DNA of 52,625 bases, filler included, from Sphacelaria rigidula (taxonomy: Eukaryota), in the NCBI GenBank assembly GCA_964200075.2. It is 3 parts of 3 records of this genome, joined end to end, with 100 filler letters (N's around TTAATTAATTAA, not from the genome) between each part and the next. Parts side by side here need not be neighbours in the genome. Positions count along the whole stretch, not along the records: positions 17,579 to 35,052 come from CAXNAA020001073.1; 2 more parts are not named here. One strand, 5' to 3'. Made by a program: the position numbers and the translations under genes. The first letter of the stretch is position 1; every line of letters starts with the position of its first letter. The notes under the pieces are model-generated. The model had not been told where the DNA came from. It saw only the letters and a program-made list of their open reading frames with translations, and made no database searches. Below are positions 1 to 35,152 of the stretch, piece by piece.

Positions 1-1133
1 TCTCGTCGTTGTATCGTCAAAGGTTAACCGGGCTTCGAGTATTGACGAGGGAAGCCGCGGGCAGCGTCTGAATGTGACTAGACTATCACATTCACCTTCA
101 TATCGAAAATGGTGGGAAAAAAGTGGGGTGTTCGGTTTTCGCCCGGAGCGGGGGAGTAGGTGAAGTGTATCCTACCTCGTATTTTTTTTTGCGGGGTTGG
201 CAGCTGCTGCTTCGCAATCAAGAGGTGAGTGCTCGTGTACGTTAAATCATTCCGGGTGAAAAGGTGTGTTGCCCAAAACAGAGGCAACCAGTGATGGTGG
301 GGAAATATTCGAGAGCTGAGAGATCGGATTCCATTGGGAAGTAATAAGAAATAGTAACATCTATCGATAGCCGTAACGAAGGTAGTTATTACTATCAATG
401 GCTATCGATTGCAGGGTTGGGAATCGTGTTTAAAAAGCAGCGCTTATCCCACTCGAAACATTCGACATATTGATATCTCAATTCCTATTAAAATATGTCA
501 AAAAAAGCATATTGTAAAGCAGCGACTATCGACAGGCAAACCGAAGGGCCAATCGATTGGTATAATACCTATCGACCTGTGGTCCCCACCAAGGTATTGA
601 AACGCAATACCCTATTGTTTGGACTAGGGAAAACACGCTGATTTCAGAAATAATCATTGATAGAAATCCTGGGTGACATATTGAAAAACAAATAGGCACT
701 GATTGAACAAACTAAAAGCTATCTAATTTAGGAACAGATATCGATAGAATAATTCACGACCTATCGACGTACACAATAGATATCTATCTCCGATGTCGTG
801 TACTATTGAATGGACCAATAACCTATCAAATAGGATATTATCCAGGGTGTGGTGTGCAACCGAAGTTGTTCAAGATGGAGTCGTTGACCGACCCCTCAGG
901 GGTGTGTTACACGGCACCCTTGTGACGGAAATCATCGCGTCTTACTTGATTTTGAACCGATGTTCTCCAAGCCAAGAATGCCGTACTCAGTTGATCAGTA
1001 GCTACGGCTCGAGCTATCACTGTTTATTCTGGTACAGTATTGAGATACAGAAGTTTATAGTGGTCAGCATCGGAAGTTTTCAGAATTCGTAGTTGTTGTA
1101 GTTCTTGAATTTTTCCCGAGAATTATTCTTCAT

Positions 1134-1630
1134 TACTACTTGAAAGTGCTAGCGCCGGCAGATTTAGGGGAAAGCGTAGGCCGAGCTCAAACTGCAGTCC
1201 CCAAGTTGGTGTTTTTGGGGCGATACAGACTAGACAGACACCCCGTATATCAGGAGGGTGTTGTTGACCGTCTTTGGTCCAATAAAAAAAGTTGTCCGGC
1301 TCTTCCGCAACGAAACGATAAATGTTCATGAAAATGAATACGTTTACAATTCTCCACAATAACATCAAGATTGTGTTCCTCTCCTATACTGCACAGATGT
1401 CAGTCGAGCATTTTTTGCGGATAGCCTCTTTTCGGGGTTTTTTCACATAAAATTTTCCATGAGTACTCGAAAGTGCTAGCGCCGACAGTTTCGGCAAAAT
1501 AAGCAGACCGTGCTCAAATCACAATGCCCAAGTTGGTGTTGCGGGGGCGATACGGAGGAAAGACCCCGTTTATCAGGAAGGTGTTATTGACCGTGAATGG
1601 TCCAAGAAACATAGTTTTCCAGCTTTAGCG
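1134..1630 (+). repeat. Diverged ~170-bp direct repeat (1134-1303 and 1461-1626)
   Basis: Shared GAAAGTGCTAGCGCCG...GCTCAAA...CCCAAGTTGGTGTT...GGGGCGATAC...ACCCCGT.TATCAGGA.GGTGTT.TTGACCGT...TGGTCCAA. Confidence 0.75.
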
Positions 1631-2597
1631 CAGTGAATAGGTGGAATTAAAAAAAAAACTGTCCTTTTTGAGTCTTCACTTATATGATGAAAATCGAGTC
1701 GGTCCACCGAAAATACCGAAAACCTAGAACCTGGGGTTGCACTTTTGCAGAACCCTCGAAGATCGGCCAAGCCGGTAAGTCACTCAATATTGATCGCCGA
1801 TATTTGTCGTTTCAATATTCGTCAAGAGGATAAAAATATCTCCAGATGCCCATTTAGTCACTGTGATGAGTGGTGGCAAGCGAAACGAATTTGGGAATAT
1901 CTTTGAGAAACCAAGAAATTACGGATTCTGCATACTTCTGACGCTGACTAACGTATGCGAGCTTATGCCTCGAAGTCCGTGCTATGCCGCAAGTGTGTAC
2001 CACAGCAAGGATCGTCGCGCCGCTGGTTTATGTTGCCCTTCGTGACCAACAGCCCAAACACGTCTTGGCTAATAACCTGGGTTATTCCATATAAAAATAA
2101 AGCACCGCTCCCTCAAACAAAAGCGTTCCTGCCACAAACGAAGGCCCCGCCGCTCCTTTCCCTTGAAGGGTGTACTCATGATCATGCATGTCATAGTCAT
2201 CAGACCATTGACCTCGCATCCTTACAAAGCCGGGACGGAGCACGCCGGGTTTTCGCCGGACCAGGCTCCCTTGAAGGGGGGAGATTATCGCACCGACCAA
2301 TCAGCATGCTTATTTTTCGCTCCCTTTTTCGCTCCCTTTCATTCTTTTGTCTCGACAAGCAGACGGAGCCTTCGGCCGTGTCTTGCCAACTTGTTTCTCG
2401 ATCCAAAACGTGCGGTGGAAGAGAAATTGCTCGTGTCCATATATTTTGTGAGATGGGCTAGAACAAAAATGCGGTGGACGCATCAGATACGAACAATTTC
2501 TTTCTCTGACGCAGATTTTCGATCGAAGGAAAAATTGCACACGTCGGACGCGTCATTACCCGTCGAAACGAGTGCACTCGTGGATGTTTTCTTGAAA

Positions 2598-2892
2598 CAC
2601 AACGAGCATGACTCGTGTGCTCGAGTCATCATTTTTTTTTACAACGAGCAATGACTCCAGTGCTCGCCCTATTAATTTTTTCCTCAATGAGCAGTGACTC
2701 GAGTGCTCGCCCTATTAGTTTGTTTCCACCACGAGCAATGACTCAAATGCTCGCCCTATTAGTTTGTTTCCACAACGAGCAATGACTCGAGTGCTAGCCC
2801 TATGAATTTTTTCCACAACGAGCAATGACTCGAGTGCTCGCCCTACTATTTTTTTCCACAACGAGCGATGACTCGAGTGCTCGCCCAATGAA
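2598..2892 (+). repeat. Tandem array, 7 units of ~43-44 bp (ACAACGAGCAATGACTCGAGTGCTCGCCCTA plus T-rich linker)
   Basis: Units start near 2598, 2641, 2684, 2728, 2772, 2815 and 2858; each has the dyad CGAGCA...TGCTCG. Confidence 0.9.
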
Positions 2893-3987
2893 CACTTTTG
2901 CATGGGACCGACCCCCCACTAACACAGGATCGACCATGTGTTGGTGAAATGATGAAAAATAAGTCAGGGAGCGACCTGCCCAATCACGGCGAGGCGAAAC
3001 TCATCGACCAGACCCGAACGACCAGCGCGGACTCCGTTGCCGAGTGTGATGTCACTGCAAATATAGTTTCGGGGCCCTATTCCTGGCCCAGATAAGCCTT
3101 CCCAGGTTTCTAAAGCCAGGGTGCTCGGAGCATGGCTTACCGTATCACTTGCATTCAGTATAGCGTTCCCGGGGTTTTTCAGGAGTTTTTTCGGGTCGCC
3201 AGCCTATACTAAACCGTAGTAATTACACTAACACAGGGTGGCGTGGGAAAACCGGGAAGGAGTGTACATGCCACAATGTGGTCATTTTCACGAGGCACCA
3301 AACCCAGGTGGGTCGTGAAAAGACAAAAAGAACTACCGTAATGAACTCTGCTTATCCCTCTGCCGATGACTTGCAGAACACTGTGAACATGTATGCAGTG
3401 GGCGGGGATGAATAAGCTGTGTATAGGCAGCTGATCTCCGTCGCTGAGAACTGCCCAGAACGTGCAAGGGAGTATGCAGCGGCAGCTACTGCTGCAGTCG
3501 GAGAGGCGTACTGCACTTACTGTACTGTACGGTACTATATATATGTGCGCCGCAACGCCAATACCCTTTGAAGAGAATTTGTTGCATGCAACAAAGAAGG
3601 AAATTGGCCCACCCCGACCACACAGGGCTGTGTGGCAAGGTGATGGGGACATTATTATCATCCAAGGCCACAAGTGGCGGGCGGCCCGCCGGTCGCCGCA
3701 TCCTGTTCAAAGCTCTCTACCGCTTGCTACATCAGATGTACATAACCTAATGCGCACCCTGCACCTGAAAAGAGATTGGATGGAACTTTCGGTCGCTATA
3801 TCAGATGTACAGAACGTAATGCGCACCCTGCACCTGAAAAGAGATTGGATGAAGCTTTCGGTCTTCTTCATAACCCTGCCGTTACATACGCGGATTTTCA
3901 GCAACATGCCACTATTTCGTGCAGACTTTAGACACGTCATTCCTAACCAGCCTCATTGGTTTTTCTGGGGACCCAGTCCCAAAGGGG
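2893..3987. mobile_element. Nested 1.1-kb insert, possibly piggyBac-like
   Basis: Splits one repeat unit between TGAA (2889-2892) and TTAA (3988-3991). The right end CAAAGGGG|TTAA is piggyBac-like; the left end CACTTTTG is a degenerate match. Contains a 69-bp tandem duplication at ~3730-3865. Confidence 0.45.
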
Positions 3988-3999
3988 TTAATATTTTCA

Positions 4000-4316
4000 A
4001 CAACAAGTAATGACTCGAGTGCTCGCCCTAATATTTTTTTCCAGAACGAGCAATGACTCCAGTGCTCGCCCTATTGATATTTTTTCACAACGAGCAATGA
4101 CTCCAGTGCTCACCCTCTTAATATTTTTTCACAACGAGCAATGACTCGAGTGCTCGCCCCACTATTGTTTTTCCTCAACGAGCAATGACTCGAGTGCTCG
4201 CCCTATTAATTGTTTTCCTCAACGAGCAATGACTCGAGTGCTCGCCCTATTAGTTTGTCTCCACAACGAGCAATGACTCGAGTGCTCGCTCTATGAAGTT
4301 TTACGGCCAACGAGCA
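4000..4316 (+). repeat. Second half of the same ~44-bp tandem array (7 units plus a partial)
   Basis: Units start near 4000, 4043, 4087, 4131, 4175, 4219 and 4263, in the same orientation as the left block. Confidence 0.9.
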
Positions 4317-5879
4317 GCCCAACGAGTGCGAGTGCCACGAGTCGCACTCGTGCTCGTCCGACGTATGAAAAATTGATGCGGCACGATCTCAGTACCACAC
4401 ATCCCTTCCGAGACAAAGGAGGGTTGCACTCATGACCTCACATGCCGCGTAGTCATACGATCATTGTCCTCGCATCCCTACAGAGCCGAACGGGGTAAGC
4501 CGAACTTTCACCAGACCAGCCTCGCAATCAATCACCTAGCGCTAAGCGCCGTGATGTCTTCGACGAGTCGCATGAAGGGTGAGCTGCATCCCGCTGAGGT
4601 TCTTCGACCCAAAATGTACAGATTATCATGTAGTATATGGATGACAGCCTCCCATGAGTTGCTTCTTATCTGGTATCGCCAGTTGAGGAGATAGCCACGG
4701 GTTACACTGTCTCATGGGTGTCTTACCACTTGAACACTTGTTAGCATGATCATCCTCTTGGCGCGGACTTGAGATTCTTCATCCTCCGCACAGTATGATC
4801 TAGCTCGAATCCCAACATGGTTATACCGCACAAAAACGCAATAAACAAGGAAAATACGGTATCCTGGTTGGCTAGCTAACGCCGTGAGTGGGATGTTTTA
4901 CAACATCGTTGCCAACCAATGCCGACCCTTTCAAGGGAACGAGACGGAGGCCGGGGGGGGGGGGGATATCGCAGCGACCAATCAACATGCTTGTTTCGTT
5001 CGTTTCTTTTATTGGATCGTTGAGATCATTTGACCGTTTCGGGACTCACAAGATTCCAAGATCTACTGGCCAACCTGAGGACATTTTACTCAGCTGATCA
5101 ACAGATACGGGTGGAGCCAGATGTGGGTTTTAGACAATCCCAGAACACATTTCGAACACTAGGATCGAGCAAAAAAATTACAAGATCAATCCTCATTGTT
5201 TGGGGGGGAGGGGGGGAGGTATCGCAGGGACTACTCATGTCGACCTGAGTTTTTCTTCGATCCTGATCTGCTTTTGTCCCGATAAGACACGACTTACTTG
5301 CACCAACTTCTATGCGACCTGGAAATGAATCGTACGAAAATGGGACATTTGAATACTTGAAGGCGTTTTCCCCTCCAGATGCGGGTTTAGAAGACCGCTC
5401 TTCCTCGGGAACATTGTCTAGGCTTGATGAGGCGGACCCAGAGCAATTTTCGGTTTCTTCCGCACGTTGTATCTCGATACGGACCCACCTTCCCATTTTG
5501 GTTTCAAGTCTTCGAATTTGATATTCGACAGGAAAATACCGAACATCATGTGTGACTGCTTCTATTCACACTACTCTTATGGAGCCGATCCATATTCAGA
5601 GAAAAGATGACGAGCGGCCAAACACGGCGAAATCATGTCGTGTCGAAGAAAAGGACGGAACATCACGGCATACAGAGTACGATACAAGAAAGACCGTGGA
5701 GCATATTGCTAGTTTGTGTTTCGAGGAGCTGCCCACTCTGTCAATCAAATGACGGAAAGTTTCGGCAAATTTCGCCTCCTGATTCACATAGTGGGCAGCT
5801 TGAGCAACTGCGGTCTAGTAAGATACCCCGTGGTCTTTGATACTGCACTCGATATTCCTAGCTCCGTAGAGACGGCTCT

Positions 5880-7300
5880 ACTCATCAGCGCGGCAGGTCA
5901 ACGTTATCAGCAGACCGCCAGGCTTGTCTAGTTTGGTGGTGCTGTCAGCGCGGACACGGAGGTGAACAACTCCATCGAAATCAACCGCCGCATCAGCACT
6001 GGGTGGGCACGCCTCCAAAAATATAGTTTCCAACTTTACGTTCGGCCCGACCACCAGCTATCTCCAAACATCCGACGGCTTCAAGCAGAGGTGGTGAAAG
6101 CTGTGCTACATGGACGCTGCACTCATAGGACTTCAAGAGTCTGTGCATTGCCCACTACAAGGGTTTGCTGCAAATGGTGGGATTCCGCAGGGAGGAGCGA
6201 ACTGGACGCAAGACTATTTCGTACAAAGATAAGCTCGACATGACAACCTACCTACGAACGTATCGAGACGCATGCGCGAGCGTCAAGTCTGCTTCGCGGG
6301 GGCCCTCATCCGGTAGGACGAAACAGGTATTCCCAAAACGTATCATCCTCGGGCGGTCAGCCGCACAAAAGCCTTAGGAGGCTGGTCGTCCCCACTAAAC
6401 ACTGGGAGGAGGACGTCCAGGAGAACCTGCGCTGACCAGGGACTCTTCCGTGCGAGGGAGCACGGCGAAAATGATTCATCTACGGTGTGGAGGTCGAAGG
6501 CGCGCACGATTGAGTGCCTGCGGCGAAGAACACGGGCAAATGGAATCTTGGGGTGCAAAAAAGGGGCGGCAGACTTCGAGGACACGGGGCGACGTGGGGA
6601 CGGACGAGAATAGGACCTTCGCCACAAACGAGAGGCTGCTGCGTCGGGAGCCGCCGGTCGGAGAGCTGCCACCGCTAGAACAACGACAGCAACAGCTCGC
6701 GAGGAATCCAGGATGGAAGCGGTCGAGAGAATGTCCCGATTTATACCCGACTAGAAATGAATTGAGGAAGCTAGGTTGACACGTAAACTGATGAACCCCT
6801 GTCTTTTTCTACCGGTTGTTGATTTTGGCCTTGGCCCGTGGTGTTGCGGTGTTCCCTACTTGTGCATTTGTACATGCTCTGCTGTCCTGCATCCTTGCTC
6901 TTCATCACTCTCGCAGTACCCTCCTTCTCTGTTCTCTGTTCTCTCCCCGACTCTCTCTCAACCTCTCTCTGTTTTCTCTACCTGGTATATGCAAATTGCA
7001 GACTGGTGCCTCCCTTCTGTGAAGCTCATGATTGAGATACGAATTTGTGTGATTTTGCGGAAGGCCTTTTCCACCACGAAGCCATGTTGCAGAGGCCGGC
7101 CATTTCCAGTGAATTTGTTGTCTTCGTTTGCTTGCTTGTTTGTTCTTGTACCCTTCTATTCTCTCTACTTGTCTTCAGCGAGTGTTTCCGTCGTGATCAT
7201 CTTGGGTACGTCCAGCATATGGATAATGGCCACGATTGGATCCCTGGAGGATCAGTCAATGTGCGACCATCAATCAGAATCAAGCAATAAATCAACGATA
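5880..7300 (+). mobile_element. Degenerate 5'-truncated RTE-like LINE (post-RT C-terminus, 3' UTR, CAAT tail)
   Basis: Decayed (F)VYLGG motif at ~5925, then EINRRISTGWARLQKYSFQLYVRP...RLQAEVVKAVLHG, GFRREERTGRKTISY and PKRIILG, with frameshifts. Followed by a pyrimidine-rich 3' UTR ending in CAATCAGAATCAAGCAAT. Confidence 0.8.
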
Positions 7301-9194
7301 ACCGGTAGCCCTGCTTCTCCACAATGTTGACACCCGTGACACTCAAACAAAGCACGGCGTACTGGTATGCTCAAGGTATCCTCCTTGGGCTATCGCATGT
7401 GTCCATGGTTGATCTGTTGTGGAAGTCAGCAACGCAAACGTGGTGCACTGTTGCCGTACGCGGCGTATGCAGAATATGAGCCGTTCCAACTTGTAGTCCT
7501 TTCATAATTTTGCGTCTGTAGGCGACTTGATTCCAAAAAGGGTCTTCCTTCTGTTTCCGGTTGATCAAAATGGCTCGAGACACAAGATCAAGAGAGCGGG
7601 ATACCCCCGACTGCATGTAGATGAGAGATGTGCATGTGCGATCTGATACGAAATCATCCGTTTTGTGTCCAGAAGATTTACGTCTTCGCTGCGCAGGGCG
7701 CGGAATGAACTCGCCACCTCACTTCACATCGGCCACATGAGATACGCTATGGTTCAACCCGTTCGCCGACGGCACAGGATCAATACCCATCTACAACGAC
7801 AAAATATTTCGGTTTCTTTCCCGCGAAGTTGGCACTCCGAACCCCAAAATTGTTACTTGGCATATTGTATAGCGGCATAGTCGTATCTGTTACAGATCCA
7901 ATAAATGAAATCTCATCCATTCTATTTGGAACGACCACGCGGATGTGCTATTGCGCACACGCACATGGTAGGGGGCTACGGTAGCTTCTGTTGCTCTCCT
8001 ATTCGACCCCACGATTGCCAGCCTCGTTTTGAAACAGCCTCGCCAGCTGACAGTCCCGGGATATCCAGGGTTTTTCAGGGGGGAAGGGGGGGTGGTATTT
8101 TTTGAGGGGGGCATAGAGATCGGCGGGGGCGGGTTCCCCGATCAAGGGACGCACTCCCGGCGTCTACCTACCGTGTACGCCTGCGGGAAAATTCTAGCAA
8201 GAAGATGAAAAACGTAGAATGTCGTTGGAGGCAACAGAGACAGTACGTCTGACCAACCAAACGCAAGCAAACGAGCAGCTATGTTCCATTACATATTGCC
8301 AACTATTGCCCAGTAGCGGCAATGGCTTGCTTCAACATTTTTAGAAGCCAGTGCTGAAAATACGAGAGATACACTATTTCCGTCAGTCTTCTATGCGCAT
8401 GCCTCCTCTATCATCATGGGTAGGGCTGCATCAAGCGCACCATGGCCATGGCCGCGTACGCGCTTGATACCCTGCGACAATCATATCGGTTGCTGATTAT
8501 ATCCTTAGTCGGAGGCTCTGCGGTGCCCACTGGTGTCTGTGTGAATCTACTCTGCTGCCCTGACTCCCTTGTGCCTTTTCCTTTTTTCTTCCTTTTTTCT
8601 TCCTTTTTTTTTCCTCTTTTTATTTTTTCATCGTTTCATTGTAGTTTATTTTATTTGCTCTGTACTTTCCTCTTCTTTTCCTTTTTTCTTGTTTTAGGTC
8701 GGCCATTTCTTTCTGTGCTTTGCTTGTGTTGACTCTTTCATCACCTTTTCTTTCTTACGACTTAGTCTGCTATGTCATTCTGTTCGACCCCCCCCGGATT
8801 TTTTTTGTTCCTTCTTTTTCTCAGAGCGTGTTTCAGTGTCGTTTTTCTTGGGGACATATTTCATGAGACCACGGCTGGACCCCTGGGGGGTCAGGTAAAG
8901 TGCGTCAACCAATCAACCAATCAACCAATCAATCAAATCGTGGTGGAGCAGTACTGCGGGAGGCAGCCCAACGCCGTTACCCACCAACTCTTGTCGGTGT
9001 GCGTGAACCACCCCGGACGTGTCTCAGAGCTCGCGACTAATCTCCTGCAGCCGTGGGTCACTACATACTTGTACTACACCACTACCCCTCCTGTCCGTGA
9101 AGAGGCGTTTCGCCTCGTGAAAAGCGATGGTTCCGAACCACGATACCGGCGTAGATGAAAGTAGACAATCTGAGCTGGGGTGGCGGGCGAAGAG

Positions 9195-9290
9195 TAGAAT
9201 ATAAAATTACTCCTCTGTTGTACTGTACTGTGGGTTGTTTCACAGAATATAAACCACTCCTCTGTTGTACTGTACTGTGGGTTGTTCCAC
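9195..9290 (+). repeat. ~48-bp tandem duplication
   Basis: AGAATATAAA..ACTCCTCTGTTGTACTGTACTGTGGGTTGTT.CAC occurs twice. Confidence 0.8.
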
Positions 9291-9707
9291 AAGAAAAAAA
9301 GAGTGCCGGAGTTCAAGCAGCTCTTGGGTGCTCAACGCTTCTATTTCCCCTCTACGATGGCGGGAAAGACAGAGTTCACAATTTTCGACCAAGAGAACTC
9401 GATCGAACCCCTGATCATCGCCTGCTCAAAGCTGGTTTAGTGTATGCTGCGAAAAATTAAATCAGGGTAATTTAGAGACGTATTCATATTATTCCACAGA
9501 GCAGACCCTCTGTGGTAGCACCGCACTTATGTGCAAAGAGCAGCGAGACGACAGACCCAGTGCACGCGAAGCCCTTAACAAGAACACGGTGGTGATGACC
9601 CCCATGTGCAGAGAAGCTGAATATCAAACAAAAACCCGACCACCATGCAAGTGCAAAACAAAATCGGCAACCCGCAACATCCCCTTGGGTTCGTTGTACA
9701 TACATAC

Positions 9708-9821
9708 CTTACTGTACCGCTTTGCCTGACGAGACAGGAAATGTGGGAAGCTGTTCCCCGCGTGGTGCTTGATCGCCATCCGCGCCGCGTTCATGACAGC
9801 AACCTCCACGTCCGTTGCTGC
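9708..9821 (-). CDS. Isolated candidate internal exon of an unknown gene
   Basis: ACACAG acceptor and AAG|GTATGT donor; 114 nt, phase 0, protein-like AATDVEVAVMNAARMAIKHHAGNSFPHFLSRQAKRYSK. Confidence 0.35.
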
Positions 9822-10527
9822 CTGTGTAGTCGCATGTATTAGAAGCACGGATCAAGAGAACGAGGGCATACGTCCGGTTCGTTATGTACGCTTGTACCAT
9901 ACGCGATCCCGTTACAGTGATCATGAGCAATCATCGGAATTCACAGAGGAACCGAGAAGCTCGTTCATTGGACTGCTTCTGTTTTGCCTTCTTGCCAAGC
10001 AAAAACTGAACAGTGCAGATTTTGGCGGTTGGGTGTCAACGTGTTCCCGGAAAGAGACCCAAGCGGGGTTGAGAAAGATCCAAGGGCAGGTCACGAGTAG
10101 AGGTTGTACCTTTGAATACTCGGGTAAAATACCCGAGTATTTACTCCGCTCAATCTTTGGGTATAGATCACGTACGGTCTCAATACTCTACTCAGACTTT
10201 GAGTTGATTGGGCACGGCCTCAAATACTTTACTCAAAGTTTGGGTAGATTGAGTACGACCTCAAACACCTTAATCAAAGTTTGGGGTAAGCACTCTCAGT
10301 AATTCTGGAGTATAGAGTATTACTTGGTCATGGCTTCAGTACTCTTCTCCTATTTCGGGTGGAGTGAGTATGACCTCACATTATCTACTCAAATTTTGGA
10401 CAGATGATTGAGAACGACCCCAAACACTCTACTCAACTATTGGGTACGAGCTGGACCAGCCTAGAAGCGAATTTATAGTTTGCAGGCCTATTCGCCGGCC
10501 AATATTTAGAGTTGGAGCCTAAAATTT

Positions 10528-10765
10528 GGTATGGAAAATGAATAGGGCATAATGATAAAATCTTACCCGTGCACATGCAAGGTTTTTTTTCATGATTTGA
10601 GGGCATTTTACTGATAAATGAAAACTGATTGTTGCCCTCAACTCATGAACTTAAAAAATGTGTGCACGGGTAATTGAAACTGATTATTGCCCTTGACTCC
10701 TGAAGAAAAAATCTTTGTGTGCACGGGTACTTTTTTGTCATAATGCTCTGTTCATTGTCCATACC
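10528..10765. mobile_element. MITE with ~45-bp imperfect TIRs
   Basis: GGTATGGAAAATGAATAGGGCATAATGATAAAA...TACCCGTGCAC is inverted against GTGCACGGGTA...TCATAATGCTCTGTTCATTGTCCATACC; there is an internal short duplication. Confidence 0.65.
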
Positions 10766-11339
10766 TTGTGTATTGATTTTTCTAGTGGGACGTCGCTAGG
10801 GCATTGAACCAATTAAAAAAGGGTAGGTTGGTATTTATATATATATATATATATATTCATCGGTTTATTAGGGCGTTCTAGAACGGTTACGGCCATTGTT
10901 TTACGAGAACGCCCACACCTTCCCCCCCCCCCGAACAGAAATGAAGGCCCATTTTGTTTTGCATTCAGCGTACCTTTGCGGTTCTCCATAGAGTTTTAAA
11001 TCACAATTCGAAAAAATGAGCCAAAAAGTGGAGATGAGGCCTACGAGCAGTGTTCATTTCTCCTCAAAACTCCCCTGGAAAAACGAAAAGAAAATGAAAA
11101 AAATTGAAAAAAATGAAAAAAAAGCTGTTACATTTTTTTGTTTTCATCATGATGCACTAGAGGTTCTCCATACGAAACTTCATAGCACGACCCTCGAAAA
11201 CTGAGACGCGATATCCAGATTTAGGTCATCTAGTGCCTCTGCTCGTAAGATATTGTTTTTCGTGAAGAACCTTATGTGCGCCATATCTCGAGGTAGATTA
11301 TTACGAATACGAATTAGGATAAGATAATAAGGGTATATA

Positions 11340-12483
11340 TACGGCTGTGAACTGGCTGCTCTGGCCAGTTAAGTTTAAACTGGCCGCGCCAGCGTCCACG
11401 GTGCTCCGTCTCGAAAGGGAGGCGTGGTCAACGGTCAAACGACTAAGGCAAGCAACAAATGAGTACCCCCCCCCCCCCTGCGGCGGTCGTAGCACTTTTT
11501 TTGTTTCACATTAATTAAGAAAAATTCCATAAATAGCCATTTTGGGCGACTTGGGTGAGGTAGCGCCCATGATTGTTGGCCCTATCTGCCACCACAAGTT
11601 GGACGCAAATTGACGGTGCAGATAGTTGCGTCTAGCTTGATTGAGCAAGCTTTGCACAGCATTGTGGCATTTGTCTGGTCTTGTTCTTGTCGTGTAAGTG
11701 TGATGTGCAATGTATTGCCGAAACCCATAAAAAATGTAACTTGGCCTTACTCGGCTCCGAAGGTAAGCGAAAAATTAGAGCTTCATGAACACGAATTTTA
11801 ATTTTTAATATACTCTATATTTTATTTTATTTTTATTTCATTTCGTTTTTTTTTCATTGTGTAAGATTTAGACCCCCCCCACCCCCCCCGAAAGACTCCA
11901 GGATTTAAGAAAGGGGCATCGGGTCTTGACTTGTTTTTTTGGGCACTCTCGGATGACATTCAAATCCCATTCAAAGCGGTGAGCGAATCGAAAACAGTTC
12001 ATCTGTAATATGCAGCAGCCGACTCTCCGTGAGGAGAGGAGGATGCAAACAAGCCAAGGCTGGCAGCACGCGGAGACAAAAGCGCAAAATGATTGACGTC
12101 CGGACCCACAAGCACGCATGCAGTCGAATTGCAAGTCATGGTGTACTCTGTATTTTGTGGTCGCGGATTGCAGATGTATGTCGTGCTATGAAACGACGAA
12201 CCTGGCATATGTTCGCAATATCACTTCGATGTGTAGTGACCACGAGTGCTGTACTGTCTGTACCTGTACTGTTGTCAGGTGCGGACCCCAATCCTGTTGC
12301 CATTTTGTTCGTAATCATGTAAGTATCTTTGTTATAAACGCAATATACTAAAAATGGTATAAACATAGCCGGTGACGGCAAACTTCAAATAAACTGGATA
12401 AACTGGGGTCCTCATCACCAGTTCCAGTTAAACTCCAGTTCCAATTTAACTGCCAATACAAACTGGTCCAGTTCACAGCCCTA
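11340..12483. mobile_element. Non-autonomous hAT-like element
   Basis: TIRs TACGGCTGTGAACTGG and CCAGTTCACAGCCCTA match 15/16; flanks GGTATATA / GATATATA form a 7/8 8-bp TSD; AACTGG/CCAGTT subterminal motifs cluster at both ends. Confidence 0.7.
11400..11478 (-). repeat. Short G-tract-anchored dispersed element, subfamily B
   Basis: Reverse strand reads (G)nTACTCATTTGTTGCTTGCCTTAGTCGTTTGACCGTTGACCACGC...CGAGACGGAGCACC; other copies at 32630-32706, 34905-34980, 35153-35225 and 47588-47664. Confidence 0.8.
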
Positions 12484-13584
12484 GATATATATCTGCCCGT
12501 GCTGTAGGGAATGTCCACACCAAAAATCATCGTCATCCGCTGAATGAATCGTTCCGGATTTCATGTAGATATTAGTACAGACGCTATCTCCGGCATAATA
12601 GAAATTACTAGACATGGGGCTTTAATCAACGAGAAAATATCTTCCAAGACTTTTGAGCAGATGCGCACCTTCCCCTTGATCGGTTAATACGATCATATGC
12701 GGATCACGGACCAACTCGTCTGTGTCGATGACATACTGCCCTAAGGTGCTTAAATCCGTTTCTAGGCTGGCCCAGCTCGCAAGCTATGTACTAAACACTC
12801 GAACCAAGTAATATCAACCATGGACATTTGTAGCCCTACCCCCGTGAACTCTACTGAGAAGATTATGGTTTGGGTATGTGGGTAATAAATAAATAAACTG
12901 TAGGGCACTAAAACCAAGAGAGACTCGAATGGACACACTACGAGTACTGAACATCGGAATACTTGTGTTTGGCAACCCCGACGCCTAAGCAAAAATCGAG
13001 CACAGAAGCATGGCGCCCTTCCAACATCAAATTTTGCCGACCTTGGGTGCGAGTGCTTGATGACAGTCCCGAGTGCAACTTCGAGTGAACGAGGGAGCGA
13101 TGACGGAGAACACCACGATGTGATTTATACTGTGTACCCCATCACCCATCATCTCCTCCTTCGCATCGGTGTATGCACCGCGGTGCCAGTCTCTATCGCC
13201 CGCAGGCCTTTGAACTGCTGACGCAGATCGCCATCTACGTGTGTGTACAAACACGGAGGTAGTATTGTACTGTACTGTATATAGTTTTCTCGGAGCAATC
13301 TGTTTTTTTTCTCACACATCATGTAGACCGGCGACCAGACTAGACGGGATGGCAACACTTCTGACTGTCTGTTCGAAGTTGAAAGTCAACCAATACTAAA
13401 ATAGTTTGATTTTGAGATGACCCGAACCGTTAGCCCGTCCAAGCCATAGGACAACCCTCGAGTGAGGGGGATGCCGGCGTTGCCAATTTGGACACAAATG
13501 CGTTCTCTATAATAGGAGCACTTGGGACTGTCGTCACCCTCACTAAAGATGCGAATTTCGGTGTTCAAGACTCAAGTCAAGTGT

Positions 13585-13937
13585 TGTCGGCCCATATATT
13601 CTGGACGCTGGTCTACACTTTTCTTCGGTGTATGTGGGGGCATCAGTCCCCGGAGTCACGCAGGAGGAAGGTCACCACACAGGAGTTTTTTGTTTGTTTG
13701 TTTTTTTCTCCATCTTCCTTTCGTGGTGCTTGTCTTTATTTCTTATCGCGCGAGGGGCTCAACCGTCACTTTCCCTCGTCGACCATTACAGGTCGAATTT
13801 TGTGTAAGTGCGCGACATCGTCGCTCTCTACTGTTGGGCATTATGTGAGGAGAAATCCCCGATCGCTCCGAGATTCGAACCCACGACCCAACCGTCGAAA
13901 GGTGTCGAGGTTACCATCTAAGCCACCGGGGCGACCG
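13585..13937 (-). mobile_element. tRNA-derived SINE, copy 1
   Basis: Head GGTCGCCCCGGTGGCTTAGATGG (A box) ... GGGTTCGAATCTC (B box); the ~350-bp body is shared with copies at 28024, 36725 and 45140. Confidence 0.8.
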
Positions 13938-16340
13938 CCTATGTTAAGTAAGAAGAATACTTCAATATCGCTCAAGTTGTATGAGTATCTCACCGGAGAT
14001 ATGGTATCTCAAACTCGTGGTTCCCGTGATAGATTTAATCGCATATTACTATGAAATTTACGGGGAATCTCGGGTTTGAGGTACCTCCACCAAGGGTGAT
14101 ACTGCAGCTGCATAGCTAGTGTGTGGGTCAACTGTTTGTTGAAGCACGCTGAGCCGAACACGGCTAACCCCCCGCCCCCGAGACAGGAGTAGATATGAAC
14201 TCATACATTTGCCGGGATGGGGTTGCGAACTTCACCGCGGCAGCAACTCGTTTACTTCCTCAAAGTGGAGATCGTGGCGTTTAGAAAAAGGGAACGGGTG
14301 CTGAAGTCGTTATGGGCAGCTCTTCTTGCTGCGGCGGTGCTGTCCCGTGGTGTACTTTGCTTTTCGAAACACTGACGATCATGATGCTGACTGGAACTCA
14401 AGCCCCAATTCAACGCAGGCCGAGAGTTCTTGGGCAAAGGGGTGCAGAGGGAGTTCTGCTTCCTCTTGCTCACGTCAGCGGCTGAGGCGTCTACTTCAGC
14501 CACAGCGCGTGATGCACACGTTGCGTGCTGTCCAAGCCCTTGGGAGTATGAGCATGAGCGTCCAGTCTGGAGTGGTCCGGATGTAATGATGGTCCGCACT
14601 TGGGGTACAAACAAAAAATATTGCAACCGTACGTCGTACTGTCCACTGGATTTCGGCGCCGACCTCCCGTGATGAAACTTTTCCAGTCCGTACTACAGCA
14701 GTACAAACTATACTGTACGAGCATACGTTTGCCCTTGTTCTGTTCTGTGGCACAGTACGGCGCGGTATATCGCTGGTAATGCTTTTCAAGTCGTGGCACT
14801 AGCAGTAAGTTATCGGCCGGGTGTCGGATGACGGGTGCCCGGTGTGGCGTCACCTCTCTAGTGGGGTCATCTTCACATGCACCCTAACCGCAAATGTGCG
14901 GGGATTTCGCGTAGTGGTCCAGGGTCGTTCTTATCGATAGGGTAGCTTAACCCTTCGAGCAATGAACCTCGTGTCGGTGCAAGAGTCGGTCGAGAGGAAA
15001 GTTTCGAACACGGAGCACCCTTCCCGCCCGCCCCCCCCTTCCGTAGAGCCATTTTCCTACATTTTTCCTGATTTTTTTTTTTTTTGTTTAAAGAAAAATA
15101 AACATTGACAAAAACTGAAAAGTCTGGTGGACTTTGCGCGGTTCGCATATTTGCTTCTGTTCCTTGCCCGCCGTCCTGTCCCGATGATCTCGGATGCTGG
15201 CAACGCTCACACGCATCTATGTACAATACACGAGCGCACGCTAGCGACAGCCTGTAGCCAAAGTAGCAACATTATCTCACGCCTCCCCAACTTAGCCCGG
15301 ACTAGTGGTAGATAGTCGAGGTACACGACACGGAACATGATCCCATATAATATTATCTGTGACATGGTAGGTGATGAGCTTGGAGCGGCGTGTCCGTCAT
15401 CTCAGCGATCTCCATGCTAAGAATCTCTGTACACGGCAGCTGGCCGCATCCGCCAACGCCTCGGCAATAAACTAGGGGACAGCAGGCTGGGTGTCCCCCC
15501 CCCCCGCCCCGTGCAAAAATTGAATTTTCGATCTTGGGGCCTACGCGTGTCCCGACATGTTGTTTTGACAGACCCTCGGTCGGTGTATAGTATTTCGGCT
15601 GACAACCCCGAGGGGTATGTTCAACCACGTATCGCACCGTGCTTTGTTTTTGTTCGAAAGACATGCAGTGGCAACTTTTAGAATGCTCCGTATGACAGCT
15701 GCCAGCGCAACAGCGCAAGGCGTCAACCCCATCATAACATCAGGCATTTACAAAGGCAACACACATGCACCTTTCGATCACGTGTGAGTGCGTGTTTGTG
15801 CACCATCTCCTCGTCGCATATTTTCTGGTAGCGGCTAACCCCCCTCCTAACTTTGTCTATGGTAGATACAACGAATGACGCATGCATGTTCCCTTGTGGC
15901 GCCCTTTTCGCCTTTTTCATCGGCTGACGGTACAGTGAAGCTGCACCTCTGTAGTGAGACCGAAGATGTTTCACCTAACCACACGCACGTCGATCACACA
16001 AGCGCAGCAGCTATTGTTGAGATCCAAGCCTCGGTATGCGCGCAAATACAACACAGACCTCTTGTATGCCCTCATCCGTGCCGGAAGATCGGACGCACCC
16101 CGCCGGAGTGCAAGCGTCGTTTCGCTGGCGTCCAAATAGGGAAGAAGACGGGCTGAAAAGCATGGCTGATCCGGGTGGACAACGCTTAGCCCCCTCGCGG
16201 GCTCCGAGTGTGCTGTTTATACACAGGTGCTGATCATGCACGCCCCCAGCCCCCACCAGGATATCGCTCACATCCTTCAGCAGGGGCTTCATCGGCATTA
16301 CTCCCACCGCAATCGCCGGGTGCATGACATAGGCGCTTAC

Positions 16341-16510
16341 CGCTGTCTTTGCCAGATACGGTGGGGGGGCAGGAGGAGAAGCCGCAGCAGCAGCAGCGGC
16401 GGCAGCAGAACCACCATTGCTACTGAAAAGCGGCAGCAGAAAGACGCCCGCGGCTGCCGGCATAACCATCATGAGATGACCAAAACGATGAAGCATGCTT
16501 CCTTGTTGTC
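16341..16510 (-). CDS. Candidate internal exon (poly-Ala/Pro), possibly the same gene as 9708-9821
   Basis: TTTGTACCCCCAG acceptor and GCG|GTAAGC donor; the only open frame reads QQGSMLHRFGHLMMVMPAAAGVFLLPLFSSNGGSAAAAAAAAASPPAPPPYLAKTA. Confidence 0.3.
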
Positions 16511-17384
16511 CTGGGGGTACAAAGCAGGTGATGCCTCTCACGTACACGCTGCCCTGTCGATCAGTGCTAAATCTGCTTGGTCCGGTTTCCGCACAGAAAA
16601 AACGAAATTTCCGGACACCGCACAATGAAGTCGGAAACCCGCAGTGGCAGCAAAGAACTGACGTCATCGACACATCCGTGACGGATGGTGAAAAATCCGG
16701 CAAAATCCGAAAAATGTGCGGCGGATTTGTGCATGAGACGCGTGACAAGATCTTCTGACCTTCTACGAAGATCGCATATCCGTGTCTCGCACCAAAGGGT
16801 ATGACATTCTGCCACACTCCTTGTCACGCACTCTCCTCGTCTTGCTGACTTGCTACTACGGAGCAGCGATTCATTGCGGTCTCGCAGACGACGCATATTG
16901 GTTGTCAAGCTTAATGCTTGCTTGGTGTTGGGAGACATTCTCCACCGAAAACCTGGACCACTGTAGATTGCCCCTGCTGCGTCTCGAGGAACAAGCACGC
17001 CAAGCGGTCAATGACGCAGGCGCTCGATGTGGTGTTCAGCGTGCGAATACGATACGTACATCCGGCAAGGAACGTTATAGCATTAATGGGACCTTTTTGT
17101 CGAGCGAGTGTTTGCATGATAGGTGCTCGAACGAGGGAATATACATGTTGTGTAGAAGGTTAACTCGATTCCTTGTCATTGACATCATTGCATGCATGCG
17201 CACGGAATAAAGACACAAACACACCGGAGGGTCACCTCCAGCGAGTGAGGAACGCGGTCAGGCCAGCTGACTGTACTCATCGCTACATAGCCATGCCCCA
17301 TACAATCCTCAGACTACAGTACCCACCCGTAGATTTTAATCTCGGACCGCTTATCCCGAACAACGAACTTTCCCACTTTTTCCG

Positions 17385-17415
<31 letters not shown>

Positions 17416-17478
17416 TCCCAACAAGTTAAGTCTGCGAGTTTTTTTACGCTTAAATCGGGGGGGGGGGTGTGGAGGTTT

Positions 17479-17578
17479 NNNNNNNNNNNNNNNNNNNNNN
17501 NNNNNNNNNNNNNNNNNNNNNNTTAATTAATTAANNNNNNNNNNNNNNNNNNNNNNNNNNNNNNNNNNNNNNNNNNNN
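17479..17578. other. Artificial contig linker (N44-TTAATTAATTAA-N44)
   Basis: Exactly 100 bp; the core has stop codons in all six frames; identical to the linker at 35053-35152. Confidence 0.97.
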
Positions 17579-18240
17579 CCATCTTAATATTCTGTTCTTT
17601 TCCATGAAATTTCGACATGATGTTCTGGACTTTTTTGTCAACGCTCCTTCGTTCCCCCGAGTACGCCCCCCCCCCCCCGTGTGTTTTTTTGTTTTTCTTC
17701 GTGAGTTATTGGCAACGGAACATTTCAGAACGTTTTTTTTCCGGAACAAAATTGCCGATAACTCACGAAGAAAAAAAATAAAACGCAGGAGGAAAGATTC
17801 GGTATCTGCACATACGTCCTGTACATCGTGTCAAAATTTCTTCGAAAACAGCTTGAAGATGAACAGCATAAATGCGTTTGAATTATTGGTAACTGGTCCA
17901 CCTCCATATACTCTGGTAACCCGTTGTCGACGGAATGACGCATTTTCTTCGCTCAATTTTGGATCGTTTTCGATGAAGTTTTGACATGATGTACAGGACG
18001 TTTGTGCGAATACCGAACCTTTCTCCCTTCCTCTTTTTTATTTCCTACGTGAGTTATTGGTGACGAAAAAATCAGAAGAGTTTTATTCGGAACAAAATTG
18101 CCAATATCTCACGAAGAAAAAAAAACAAAACATAGGGGGAAATGTTAGGTATTCGTTGGGTATTCGCACATACGTCCTGTACATAGTGTCGAAATTTCAT
18201 CGAAAACAACCCAAAATTGAGCGAAGAAAATGCGTTTCCA
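17579..18240. mobile_element. Two tandem fold-back MITE copies (~300 bp each)
   Basis: 17937-18237 is palindromic (CGCATTTTCTTCGCTCAATTTTGG...TGTACAGGACG vs CGTCCTGTACA...CCAAAATTGAGCGAAGAAAATGCG); 17579-17880 is a diverged copy cut at the contig edge. Both would lie in intron 1 of the proteasome-like gene. Confidence 0.7.
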
Positions 18241-18631
18241 ACATTCCTGGTGGCTTCTTGGACGGTCCAGCTTGTAGTACTCGAGATAAACTCAATTTTT
18301 TTTAAACTACGCTCGAACTACGTACGAGTACCAATTCCGCATACTTTTGACTTTTGATGCCGACCGCTTAGTGTCGGCTTAGGTTGGCAGCAAATGGGTG
18401 GCAGTGTTCCCTCGCCTGTACCTGATCGTCACATTTGTCCTTTTCGACAATACCGTACTTCCACTCCAGACAGTGCAATATAGCACAGCACTTGTATAGC
18501 CAGTTATACAGCACAGTACAGACAATGCCGTGAGGCAAGCTATCAGACAGTCGCTGCATGTGCTGTGTTTTCCACACAAAACGCGTCTTGTATCCACGGT
18601 GGAAGTTGTACTCAAGCAGGGGAGATCTCAC

Positions 18632-18850
18632 CAAAACCGCGTTTGACGCATACTCGATTTGGGTCAAGCTCCCACGAGGGCTGAAGGTCGTCAGCGAGAA
18701 CGAGTACGGTGTGTCGTCCCTGCTTATAGCTCCTCCTCGGATTGCCCAGGCTGCACCTGTCGAAGCTGACCATCGTTGAGATGTAGATATCGCGTTGGCA
18801 AATGCTAAGGCAGAGACCCAGAAACCCCAGTGAATCCAATACAGCAGCAT
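18632..18850 (-). CDS. First exon of a 20S proteasome alpha-2-like subunit with an N-terminal signal/transit-like extension (remaining exons not found on this contig)
   Basis: ATG at 18850; 73 codons MLLYWIHWGFWVSALAFANAISTSQRWSASTGAAWAIRGGAISRDDTPYSFSLTTFSPRGSLTQIEYASNAVL, then a GTGAG donor. YSFSLTTFSPxG.L.QIEYA..AV is the proteasome alpha N-terminal signature and is closest to alpha-2 (PSMA2). No downstream proteasome exon was recognised before the contig start at 17579. Confidence 0.8.
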
Positions 18851-19259
18851 GTCGACAACACACCACCCACAGTTGAAGACCCCTACGTCTCTTGTTCAGT
18901 TCCTCGATTTGATTTTCTGTAGTTCTAGTAGTGCTAGAGCCGCCATAAACTGGCGTAATGGACCGCGACCCAGTCTACATGGGAAGATAGCACCGCGCTT
19001 CGGAGGGGGAGCGGCGCTACTTCCGGAATCTTCAGTCACATTCGATTATAGTTGTGTAGTACCCGTTGTTGCATTTCGGGGTTTTCGTAGTGAATAGTTG
19101 GCACCAAGAATTTTCAAAATTATAAACAACGGGCAAACCTCACGACGACGACACAACAAGCATCACATTCGGAGTTTAGCAATCAACACCCGTGCTTCGG
19201 CAGTCCTTGATTTGTAAGTGGACACCTGTATCTTTGATAACCTTTGGGAAAGTCATCTA
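18851..19259. promoter_or_regulatory. Putative bidirectional promoter / 5' UTR region between the proteasome-like gene (-) and CDC45 (+)
   Basis: Two divergent ATGs (18850 minus, 19260 plus) are separated by only 409 bp that contain no recognisable repeat. No specific motif is claimed. Confidence 0.5.
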
Positions 19260-22200
19260 ATGCTGCTGGATCAGGCACGCCTGGATTTTGCTTACGAGCA
19301 AATCGTTCAGGATGCCGCAAAGGCTCGGGGAGCGTGCACCGTCATGGTGTTCGTCGCTCCCAACTGCGATGCCATGTGTGCATGCCGAATTTTGTCATAC
19401 ATGCTTCGTGCGGATGCGGTATCGTACAAGATCAAGCCGGTTTCTGGTTACGGTGATATAGCTGCCGCAAATGAAGATCTCATCAGGGTGAGCGCGACCG
19501 CTTGCAGTACGAGAAGTCGAGAGTGCCGCGGATAGTCAGCACCGATTCATCCACCGAAAGTTCATCAGTGATGTTCTCACCATGGCACACCATCGCGTAC
19601 GAGGAGCGGGTTGAGCAGCGAGGCAGTGGGCAAATAAGGAGTTGATGCCATACTGGCCCGTTGGATGTGTTGCTTCAAGAGTTGCCACGGTATGATGCGT
19701 TCCTCGGCGCATCTGCTACTCATGAGCCCGCTCGAAATGTTCAGGGGTAGATATCTCTCGCAGCTCAGAGATATGCGCCCTAAACCTTGTTTTTGAAAAG
19801 TTTAGCCCGTTGTACCTGTGTACAGTAGCAACTCGTGACGGTACAGGAGTAGTAAGCGCGGTATATCTCAAACACCCCATGAGACAAGTCACTTAGTCTC
19901 CTTGCCCTTGCCTGTCTTGCTTTCCTGGTTTTGGGGTCGGTTCATCAGGGTAATGAAGACATCCGCAGTGTGGTGATGATAAACTGCGGCGCTATCTGCA
20001 ATGTCGTCGACCTGTTGTCCCACTTGTCACCGGAGGCGTACGTCTATATCATCGACAGTAACCGCCCTATCCACCTGGCCAACGTCTACCCACGAAAAGA
20101 CAGGTATAAACGTACTACCTCCATCACAGGGCATTTTGCTGTACTGTTGTACTGTCGGATTCACTCAGCCGCCCTGATCGTGAGAAATATTATTCATGAT
20201 GATTGGGGCCCGGGCACGACTCTCATCTCTTCTGTCACTCGAAATATCGATACCTACAAGTAACCTACACTAAATATTCAATAGTTGGGATACTGTAAAC
20301 CGTTCGAGAATCCGGGACTGCTGCTAGTCCCGACGGTCCCGTGGAGGATGACAAAGTCGTGGACAAGAAAGACCATCGCCGGATGCTCGGGCGCTGAAAC
20401 GAGTTCACGTGTTCTCTTATTTGACCAAAATTATGGCAACAGCCATGGTTAAGCAGCCAAGTGGGGGTTTTGTTTCACTCTGGCTTGTGTTCGTGCAATA
20501 TTTATTGTGAAAAGTATAGCTGCGCCCTGTACACCTTCGTATTCCGCTAGCGTTATCATCGATGCTTGCGACAGCAGAGATGCATACGTGATTGCAGGGC
20601 AGCTAACTGCTGAAATAGTGGTGAAGTGTAATCATGCGCAGGAGGGTGCACGGGCGATAAGCGTGTAAATAGATAGCCTAGCGGTCCCGGATCCCTTGTT
20701 TATATGAAGGCGTTGTCTCGCTCACGAGAACAAACGATTCTGAGCCCTCGGCAGAGGGGAAATAGAACAGGTAATCTTTTGACCGTCAGGGTGGATCATC
20801 TTGGGCTTGTGGTCATTCGCAAGCGAAGAAATCGTTTCAACAAGTAGTCCACCCTGGTAGCCACAGGGTCAACACTCAGCGATTACCACGCGTGTATTTT
20901 GCGACATGAGAGTTCTGTTGTGTTTCATGCCACGTCCATGGAGAGATGTCGATGACACCGTCAACACAGTTATGGGTTCCGATAAGGTACATTTCATCGC
21001 GGGCGTTACCCACCTTACTCTGTCACAGCTACGTAAATGATGTGCATGTGCAGAATACATGTACAGGGAAATATATTCTATAGCAGTCTGTCAAGGACTG
21101 AATACCCCCCCAACAAAGGAGTATGCTAGAAAATTAGTCTGGTCGTTGATATGTCGAGTATTTTTTCGAGATCACCACAACCAATTAGGGACTTGTACGC
21201 TTATCCACGTGCATTTCGATGACGTGGTTTCATTCGCATCGTGACATCTCTCGTGAGTCGGGTGAGGTGAATGCACGGCGTTCAGTGTAACGTTGGCGCG
21301 CAGCAGTGCATGGGATAGGTTCGTTGACCTGTATGGCCACCATGACCCCCGAGACGACCTGTTTTTACTTCAGCACCTACAACACTATTTTCCAGTCTCC
21401 GGCGTGATCCCGGCAAGTGAAAACAAAACCCCTCGTCATGTGTTTTCCCCGGCTTTACTGATTTTCTTCTCATTGTAACAAAGAGTGGTGGTGTTCGTTG
21501 ACGAGGCCAACGGGGATGTCGACAACATCCCAAGCGACGGAGAAGGTCTAGACGGAGATGACGACACCAGCGATGAGGAGTCTGAAGTTGACAGCGATGT
21601 AAGTAGCACTGAGTGTTCAGCAGCGATGTCTTGACAACTCTGGTCACAGTCACGCTGTGATATCGCTGTATTTGCAGCCATTGCTCGAGGATGATCTTGG
21701 ATGCGGAGAAGATTTGTCTAGCGTTCCCATATGTAGTACTAGTCTGTACGCAATTCAGGTGCTTGCTTAATTGCGCCCGTTCTGTCTTCCTCCTAAAGAG
21801 AGGTTATGTCATGCTACATGTAACTCTACAAGAAACTGATATCCCTCGTCAGTCCGAATACGCACCCTTCAAGCGAATGTGTAGGCTACAAGATCAAATT
21901 TGGTTCAGAGGGTGCTGTAAAGTAAAGGCGGTATGTAGAGCAGGACGTCTGCGCTGGCTTCCCTCAGTATCTTCGCCCACCACATCTCGTTAGAGACACG
22001 AACGAGGTCTGTGCTCGAGGCTCAGACTAAATCAGTATATTAGCGACTGGTGTAACCGTGTTTCACTCTTGGCGTGTTGCAACAAATATCACAAGTCATT
22101 TGCCATTCGTGCCAACTTCATCGACAGGAGGAAGAGCTGCGGAGCAATGAAAGCGACGGTGATGATACAGACGACGAAGACTCGGATGATGGCGAAGGTG

Positions 22201-35052: not shown

Positions 35053-35152
35053 NNNNNNNNNNNNNNNNNNNNNNNNNNNNNNNNNNNNNNNNNNNNTTAA
35101 TTAATTAANNNNNNNNNNNNNNNNNNNNNNNNNNNNNNNNNNNNNNNNNNNN
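35053..35152. other. Artificial contig linker (N44-TTAATTAATTAA-N44)
   Basis: Same 100-bp structure as 17479-17578. Confidence 0.97.

Follow-up and report, generated by a model that had tools for sequence, protein, structure and literature searches.

We infer that a gene of Sphacelaria rigidula (assembly GCA_964200075.2), which begins within the analysed window, that is the whole stretch of 52,625 nucleotides including filler, very probably encodes a subunit of a cap-less 20S proteasome core in the periplastidial compartment (PPC) of ochrophytes. The product is a nucleus-encoded paralogue of proteasome subunit alpha-2 with a predicted localisation and a predicted cleavage. More specifically, a signal peptide would bring the chain co-translationally into the chloroplast ER before being removed at ANA|I, after residue 20, and the transit-like part that follows would mediate passage through SELMA into the PPC. 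There, a non-aromatic +1 residue would retain the protein with no onward transfer to the stroma, and cutting of the transit-like part after RGG would leave 8 residues before the alpha signature, against 7 in the host copy. The mature subunit would take its place in an alpha ring that sits on beta rings of the PPC, in a particle degrading PPC proteins, probably fed by PPC Cdc48 because no 19S cap is known in the PPC.

The consulted sections of Moog et al. (2011, PMC3101018) describe such a set in Phaeodactylum tricornutum, in which alpha2, two alpha7, beta2, beta3, beta6 and beta7 carry predicted PPC signals. GFP placed alpha7-1/2, beta2, beta6 and beta7 in the PPC, alpha2 being predicted, and those sections report no 19S subunits with predicted PPC signals. 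A PPC-targeted alpha-2 is already on that predicted list and so lacks the novelty that the original prediction gave it. In the available parts of PMC5070193 and PMC5756292, heterokont PPCs hold the 20S core alone, and an HbYX-bearing PPC Cdc48 has been proposed as its partner (PMC5070193 and PMC3101018, same sections). The accessible text of PMC12412216 treats SELMA with no mention of the 20S core or brown algae, and that of PMC5462543 has no mention of the proteasome.

Like the Phaeodactylum set, the gene reported here is a nuclear second copy that has a predicted signal-plus-transit-like leader and is accompanied by a leaderless host copy; alpha2 appears on the predicted list there, and the genome here has corresponding extra alpha and beta copies. 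Unlike the diatom gene, it is intron-bearing and of brown-algal type. The diatom PPC alpha2 and this protein are likened by type and predicted leader, as no named diatom occurs in the clade described below. Stork et al. are said to have widened the PPC subunit list in 2012, so subunits from brown algae may have been published before. If our assignment is right, the PPC 20S system known from diatoms also occurs in a genome of brown-algal type, with support at the level of splicing.

Gene structure and transcript coverage

Translation of the window on the minus strand from 18850 to 18632 gives a proteasome alpha-2-like peptide of 73 codons, precisely the peptide on which the original prediction was built. 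Since the frame is followed by a GT donor at 18631-18630, 18632..18850 (minus strand) represents the first exon, which ends in phase 0. Exon 1 sits on contig G000:C1073, about 1 kb from the contig end, and the 5' part of intron 1 (17579..18631, minus strand) reaches that end and the N linker. At 17579-18300 the intron contains a repeat-like element in two diverged copies, to which the break in the contig is probably due. The linkers, of the form N44-TTAATTAATTAA-N44 at 17479-17578 and 35053-35152, separate distinct contigs. Because the window is made of contigs joined in this way, positions 1-17478 are not 3' of the gene and neighbourhood across linkers is no real synteny; tblastn of orthologues against the whole window revealed no additional exon of the paralogue.

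The remaining exons had been suggested to lie on another contig, where they were indeed recovered. A homologue search returned 5 matches among 53 candidates, including one full-length orthologue, P0003 (291 aa). With P0003 as query against the genome, residues 75-130 and 128-290 were placed on contig C24898 at 68% identity. Exon 2 (G000:C24898 5062-4902, minus strand, 161 nt) and exon 3 (G000:C24898 4401-3900, minus strand, 502 nt), both outside the window, join the 219 nt of exon 1 in one GT-AG combination to form an open frame of 293 aa. The ends of C24898 and C1073, when compared, had no overlap and shared dispersed repeats only.

Four of the 8 matching sequencing runs were compared: X1 and X2 (study P1), X8 (study P2) and X5. 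The small assemblies X1, X2 and X8 cover only 18631 to 18956, 18943 and 18958, respectively, with zero mismatches. In these runs the intron is uncovered, and all three transcript-like contigs continue past 18631 into the first letters of exon 2. By contrast, the large run X5 spans the entire stretch and may be the source of this DNA. The alpha-2 paralogue is a real, intact and expressed nuclear gene, the runs being classed as RNA by an automated guess together with spliced cover; none of those listed is recorded as RNA. The transcript-like contigs, from two studies, start 93-108 nt 5' of the ATG and delimit a 5' UTR at 18851..18958 (minus strand) as far as they extend, such contig ends being unable to fix the true transcription start. 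In X8, 40 extra 5' letters beyond 18958 do not match the stretch; they occur in a single contig and are possibly an artefact.

Because the contigs span the extension, the leader is present in the mRNA, and the downstream transcript start that would have undermined the original prediction is not what these runs contain. A cytosolic product, with the extension left untranslated or cryptic, is accordingly scarcely credible. An in-frame upstream ORF (18896..18946, minus strand, 16 codons, with its stop 46 nt ahead of the main ATG) could lower initiation at Met1, and a chance AG stands a few codons before the signature; against this, the extension is covered with no gaps or joints, and orthologues keep the same frame through the leader. 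Furthermore, exon 1 has no in-frame ATG between Met1 and its end, so no leaderless form retaining the signature is available. The continuous contig cover also rules out a hidden upstream exon joined at the AG that precedes the signature. The start context of the upstream ORF (18946-18896) is weak, and one of the three transcript contigs begins just past its ATG.

Head to head with the paralogue, on the plus strand, lies CDC45, whose first coding exon (19260..19487; Pfam PF02724, E 4.5e-16) falls within transcript contigs at 19139-19488; these continue from 19950 onward, and this first splice is visible in the same transcript-like runs. The gap between the divergent transcript sets (18959..19138, about 180 bp) is a probable common promoter of the two genes. 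CDC45 is known here as a neighbour only, and no functional link is claimed.

Identity, phylogeny and companion subunits

Residues 49-71 (18638..18706, minus strand) match the alpha N-terminal signature PF10584 with an E value of 7.6e-08, better than the curated Pfam cut-off, and the PF00227 domain follows. The top PDB matches of P0003 are alpha type-2, the nearest of the seven alpha types, and its predicted model (mean pLDDT 67) is a proteasome alpha/beta sandwich with a disordered N-terminus. The protein resembles solved alpha type-2 structures in its YSFSLTTFS signature and, through its orthologue P0003, in the top matches and the modelled fold. Unlike them, it has a 48-residue leader, an acidic insertion of about 20 residues and a C-terminus that stops short of the last helix of host alpha-2; it falls in a separate clade and, over the domain, is about 41% identical to host-type ochrophyte alpha-2 (92 of 224 positions against P0249).

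Y49, P58, Y67 and K107 are present in the paralogue, and the lysine is invariant in the clade alignment. We take these residues to be the equivalents of Tyr8, Pro17, Tyr26 and Lys66 in Thermoplasma numbering. They would be compatible with a gate and with a pocket at which an HbYX-bearing PPC Cdc48 could dock. Gate and pocket residues, together with the ring-contact motif around GGVRPFG, are retained throughout the clade.

Two FastTree phylogenies were built, one from 138 sequences (those of 184 with adequate domain cover, plus this protein) and one from 159 chosen sequences. In both, the paralogue clade has a support of 1.0, sits on a long stem and stands apart from host ochrophyte alpha-2, including that of Phaeodactylum. 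Its placement inside the alpha-2 clade has a support of 0.997 in the 138-sequence tree and 0.55 in the 159-sequence tree; deep nodes lack resolution in both trees, neither of which contains a sequence labelled as red-algal or nucleomorph. Brown algae are the nearest named relatives and are represented by Ectocarpus, Scytosiphon, Hapterophycus, Choristocarpus and Discosporangium. The other named members are Chrysoparadoxa, Phaeothamnion and Tribonema, alongside unnamed environmental or transcriptome proteins. At the level of sequence, the paralogue is shown to be present ochrophyte-wide, with no named diatom sequence in its clade among the trees and named members. The top Atlas cluster for the query is a diatom-rich proteasome cluster (0.93), which serves as a lead only.

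The genome also contains the host counterpart. A first exon on contig C13367 encodes 7 residues before the signature and is 82% identical to the Phaeodactylum host alpha-2; its downstream exons were searched for in the genome and not found. With a clade of its own and this leaderless alpha-2, as far as its first exon, in the same genome, the protein is the second alpha-2 paralogue that had been proposed, and not the only alpha-2 gene.

A census of PF10584 in the genome gave 10 matches among 23 candidates, five with a short or no leader and five with hydrophobic leaders. Besides the gene described here, the leader-bearing loci comprise alpha1-like, alpha3-like and alpha4-like genes and a divergent one (L024:1854-2479, L020, L021 and L022), all with candidate, signal-like leaders that are unspliced predictions. 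The alpha1-like type was confirmed, with its candidate leader on an upstream exon; the alpha3-like, alpha4-like and divergent types are presumed, having been assigned by motifs. Three of the four sisters have fewer than 10 residues between signal and domain. These five candidates constitute a parts list for a possible barrel in a PPC where no 19S cap is known, against three alpha subunits in the consulted sections of PMC3101018.

The corresponding PF00227 census gave 37 matches and, once a bacterial contig had been removed, second copies of several beta types (L029, L030, L031, L034, L035 and L038). These are presumably beta6-, beta3-, beta4-, beta1- and beta2-like, types that we again assigned by motifs. 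The beta3-like and beta6-like copies bear candidate leaders, and one second copy has Thr at the expected mature start; a second beta5 was not seen in this census, which may be incomplete. The candidate leader of the beta6-like copy contains RRGG. The removed contig, C17728, held the strongest PF00227 match, in an intronless row of actinobacterial type (L025, G000:C17728:1-3500), a bacterial contig in the assembly. We take this row to be Pup, proteasome beta, proteasome alpha and Pup-ligase.

The long branch, the insertion and the missing last helix, as well as the count of only five alpha candidates with no second beta5 in a possibly incomplete census, would agree with a PPC protein acting outside a working 20S barrel, as a structural component or chaperone close to SELMA. 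Retention of the gate, the pocket and the ring-contact motif across the clade makes this very unlikely, and so do the second beta copies, one of them with the expected Thr.

Leader peptide and predicted compartment

The extension before YSFS, put at about 47 residues in the original prediction, measures 48 residues. Residues 1-20 (18791..18850, minus strand) form the predicted signal peptide on the basis of hydropathy and the -3/-1 rule. The hydrophobic part is present as claimed, with a core that is only moderate: its best 10-residue Kyte-Doolittle mean is 1.82, among the weakest of eight leaders, the seven relatives ranging from 1.76 to 2.70. Residues 21-40 (18731..18790, minus strand) form a transit-peptide-like region with no acidic and two basic residues, 10 of the 20 being S, T or A, and with IRGG at its end, in agreement with the S/T/A-rich, acid-free part described earlier. 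Two cleavage options had been named, but the sequence offers three A-X-A sites that overlap one another: 16/17 (ALA|F), 18/19 (AFA|N) and 20/21 (ANA|I), the last being preferred.

The leader of P0003 is 49 aa long and shares 19 of 28 residues with this protein at positions 21-48, whereas only 5 of the 20 signal-part residues are identical. As P0003 starts at a like distance and residues 21-48 are conserved, the extension is no chance frame. In the predicted model of P0003 the transit-like part is disordered. All eight clade members compared have leaders, of 26-53 residues, so orthologues do not lack the extension, and complete members of the ochrophyte paralogue clade are predicted to carry signal-type leaders.

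The two proteins have site 20/21 in common (TIA|S in P0003), and their difference at the upstream site bears on the alternative destination. Cleavage at ALA|F would give a +1 Phe and send the protein into the plastid stroma, making it a eukaryotic 20S subunit inside the chloroplast. This site obeys the -3/-1 rule, the stretch after it is acid-free, and P0185/P0040 likewise have FF near the site. However, residue 16 of P0003 is Pro and the following position Leu, so the +1 F option is unconserved in the closest orthologue; the leader has neither of the stromal-type motifs F-x-P and F-x-x-P given in the accessible part of PMC3774753; and the sister subunits have no aromatic +1. Moreover, in the available data, ASAFind gives Phaeodactylum sbeta2, which has F at a candidate site, the score 'plastid, low confidence', although its GFP fusion localises to the PPC. 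A stromal product is highly improbable on this evidence. Across the other clade members the +1 residue is mostly non-aromatic, but P0185/P0040 allow CCG|F, and P0010 has ALG|L. Of the two destinations originally left side by side, the PPC branch (ANA|I, at the conserved site 20/21) is favoured over the stromal one (ALA|F), as judged from sequence comparison.

According to the consulted part of PMC12136025, PPC leaders are most clearly recognised by a +1 residue that is not aromatic, and an acid-free presequence is more a stromal than a PPC trait. The leader here has a non-aromatic +1 at the preferred site, yet also an acid-free transit-like part. It resembles the bipartite presequences of PPC proteins from diatoms and cryptophytes in that source through its predicted signal peptide with a -3/-1 site, its +1 residue at the preferred site and its [LIV]RGG end, and is unlike a typical one in that the first 20 post-signal residues have no acidic residue and an alternative +1 F site exists. 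The weak hydrophobic core, the acid-free transit-like part, the divergence, the insertion and the missing last helix all count against placement in a PPC core.

If the leader acted as a signal peptide only, the protein would stay with its sister paralogues in the chloroplast-ER lumen or secretory path. Several clade members (P0010 and P0042 have fewer than 10 residues between signal and domain) and three of the sister paralogues are almost without a transit-like part, and predictors separate PPC leaders from secretory ones only with difficulty, according to the same part of PMC12136025. We nevertheless consider retention in the lumen improbable, given that diatom counterparts of the subunit set localise to the PPC and that the conserved 20-residue transit-like part here ends in a motif enriched in a set of PPC proteins.

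The RGG motif in PPC presequences

IRGG occupies residues 37-40 (18731..18742, minus strand), 8 residues ahead of the signature, and is a candidate maturation site. All 6 rows of alignment A1, this protein accounting for two of them, have RGG. It occurs in 5 of the 8 leaders compared, 3-8 residues before the signature, P0040/P0185, P0044 and P0072 also having it, and is absent from the P0010, P0042 and P0043 leaders among the eight. Within this genome, three of the four sister paralogues lack RGG in their leaders, where the transit-like part is near nil; the search for it in Der1 and Cdc48 leaders did not find their first exons.

To place the motif in a wider context, the first 100 residues of 31 proteins of the ASAFind 2.0 PPC training set (PMC12136025, supplementary file 4) were counted by hand, a ubiquitin-like fusion being left out of the [LIV]RGG count. 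The motif was present in 9 of the 31 (Guillardia 7 of 15, Thalassiosira 2 of 16) against a chance expectation of about 0.2 from the composition of the retrieved proteins, in a set whose members are mostly predictions and in which one species dominates. As here, leaders end in [LIV]RGG in EF-1alpha, 14-3-3, Cdc48 and Ubc8 of Guillardia and in Der1-1 and TrxH of Thalassiosira; in Guillardia EF-1alpha the motif stands immediately before the start of the conserved domain. A Thalassiosira Hsp70 with a signal peptide likewise has it just before the domain, in the available part of PMC4329603. Of the 101 cryptophyte plastid-set rows (PMC12136025, file 2), three search matches have [LIV]RGG in the leader region; two of these have no aromatic +1, and the third, a +1 F protein, is a counter-example.

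Conservation in most leader-bearing orthologues and enrichment in the PPC set give the candidate maturation site, an aside in the original prediction, better support than stated there, with cleavage itself predicted. We take [LIV]RGG to resemble the ubiquitin C-terminus LRGG, and LRGG is also visible in the ubiquitin rows of the PPC set. As a tentative and rather doubtful generalisation, [LIV]RGG might be a mimic of the ubiquitin C-terminus in many cryptophyte, diatom and other ochrophyte PPC presequences, cut by a PPC deubiquitinase-type protease, and brown algae might in addition have a PPC alpha ring of at least five distinct subunits, fuller than the one reported in diatoms. The motif is the more useful lead: for the removal of PPC transit-like peptides, the consulted sections of PMC5756292 only postulate a 'TPL peptidase', and a deubiquitinase-type protease, if the proposal holds, would be that unnamed enzyme. 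Among the freely accessible papers searched, including the accessible parts of PMC3774753, PMC4494062, PMC6332867, PMC3017844 and PMC5756292, none was found to note RGG in PPC leaders. Finally, the two plastid-set rows with no aromatic +1 (rows 13 and 62) are cryptophyte FBPase-like and thioredoxin-like proteins with LRLRGG, and both may be PPC proteins.
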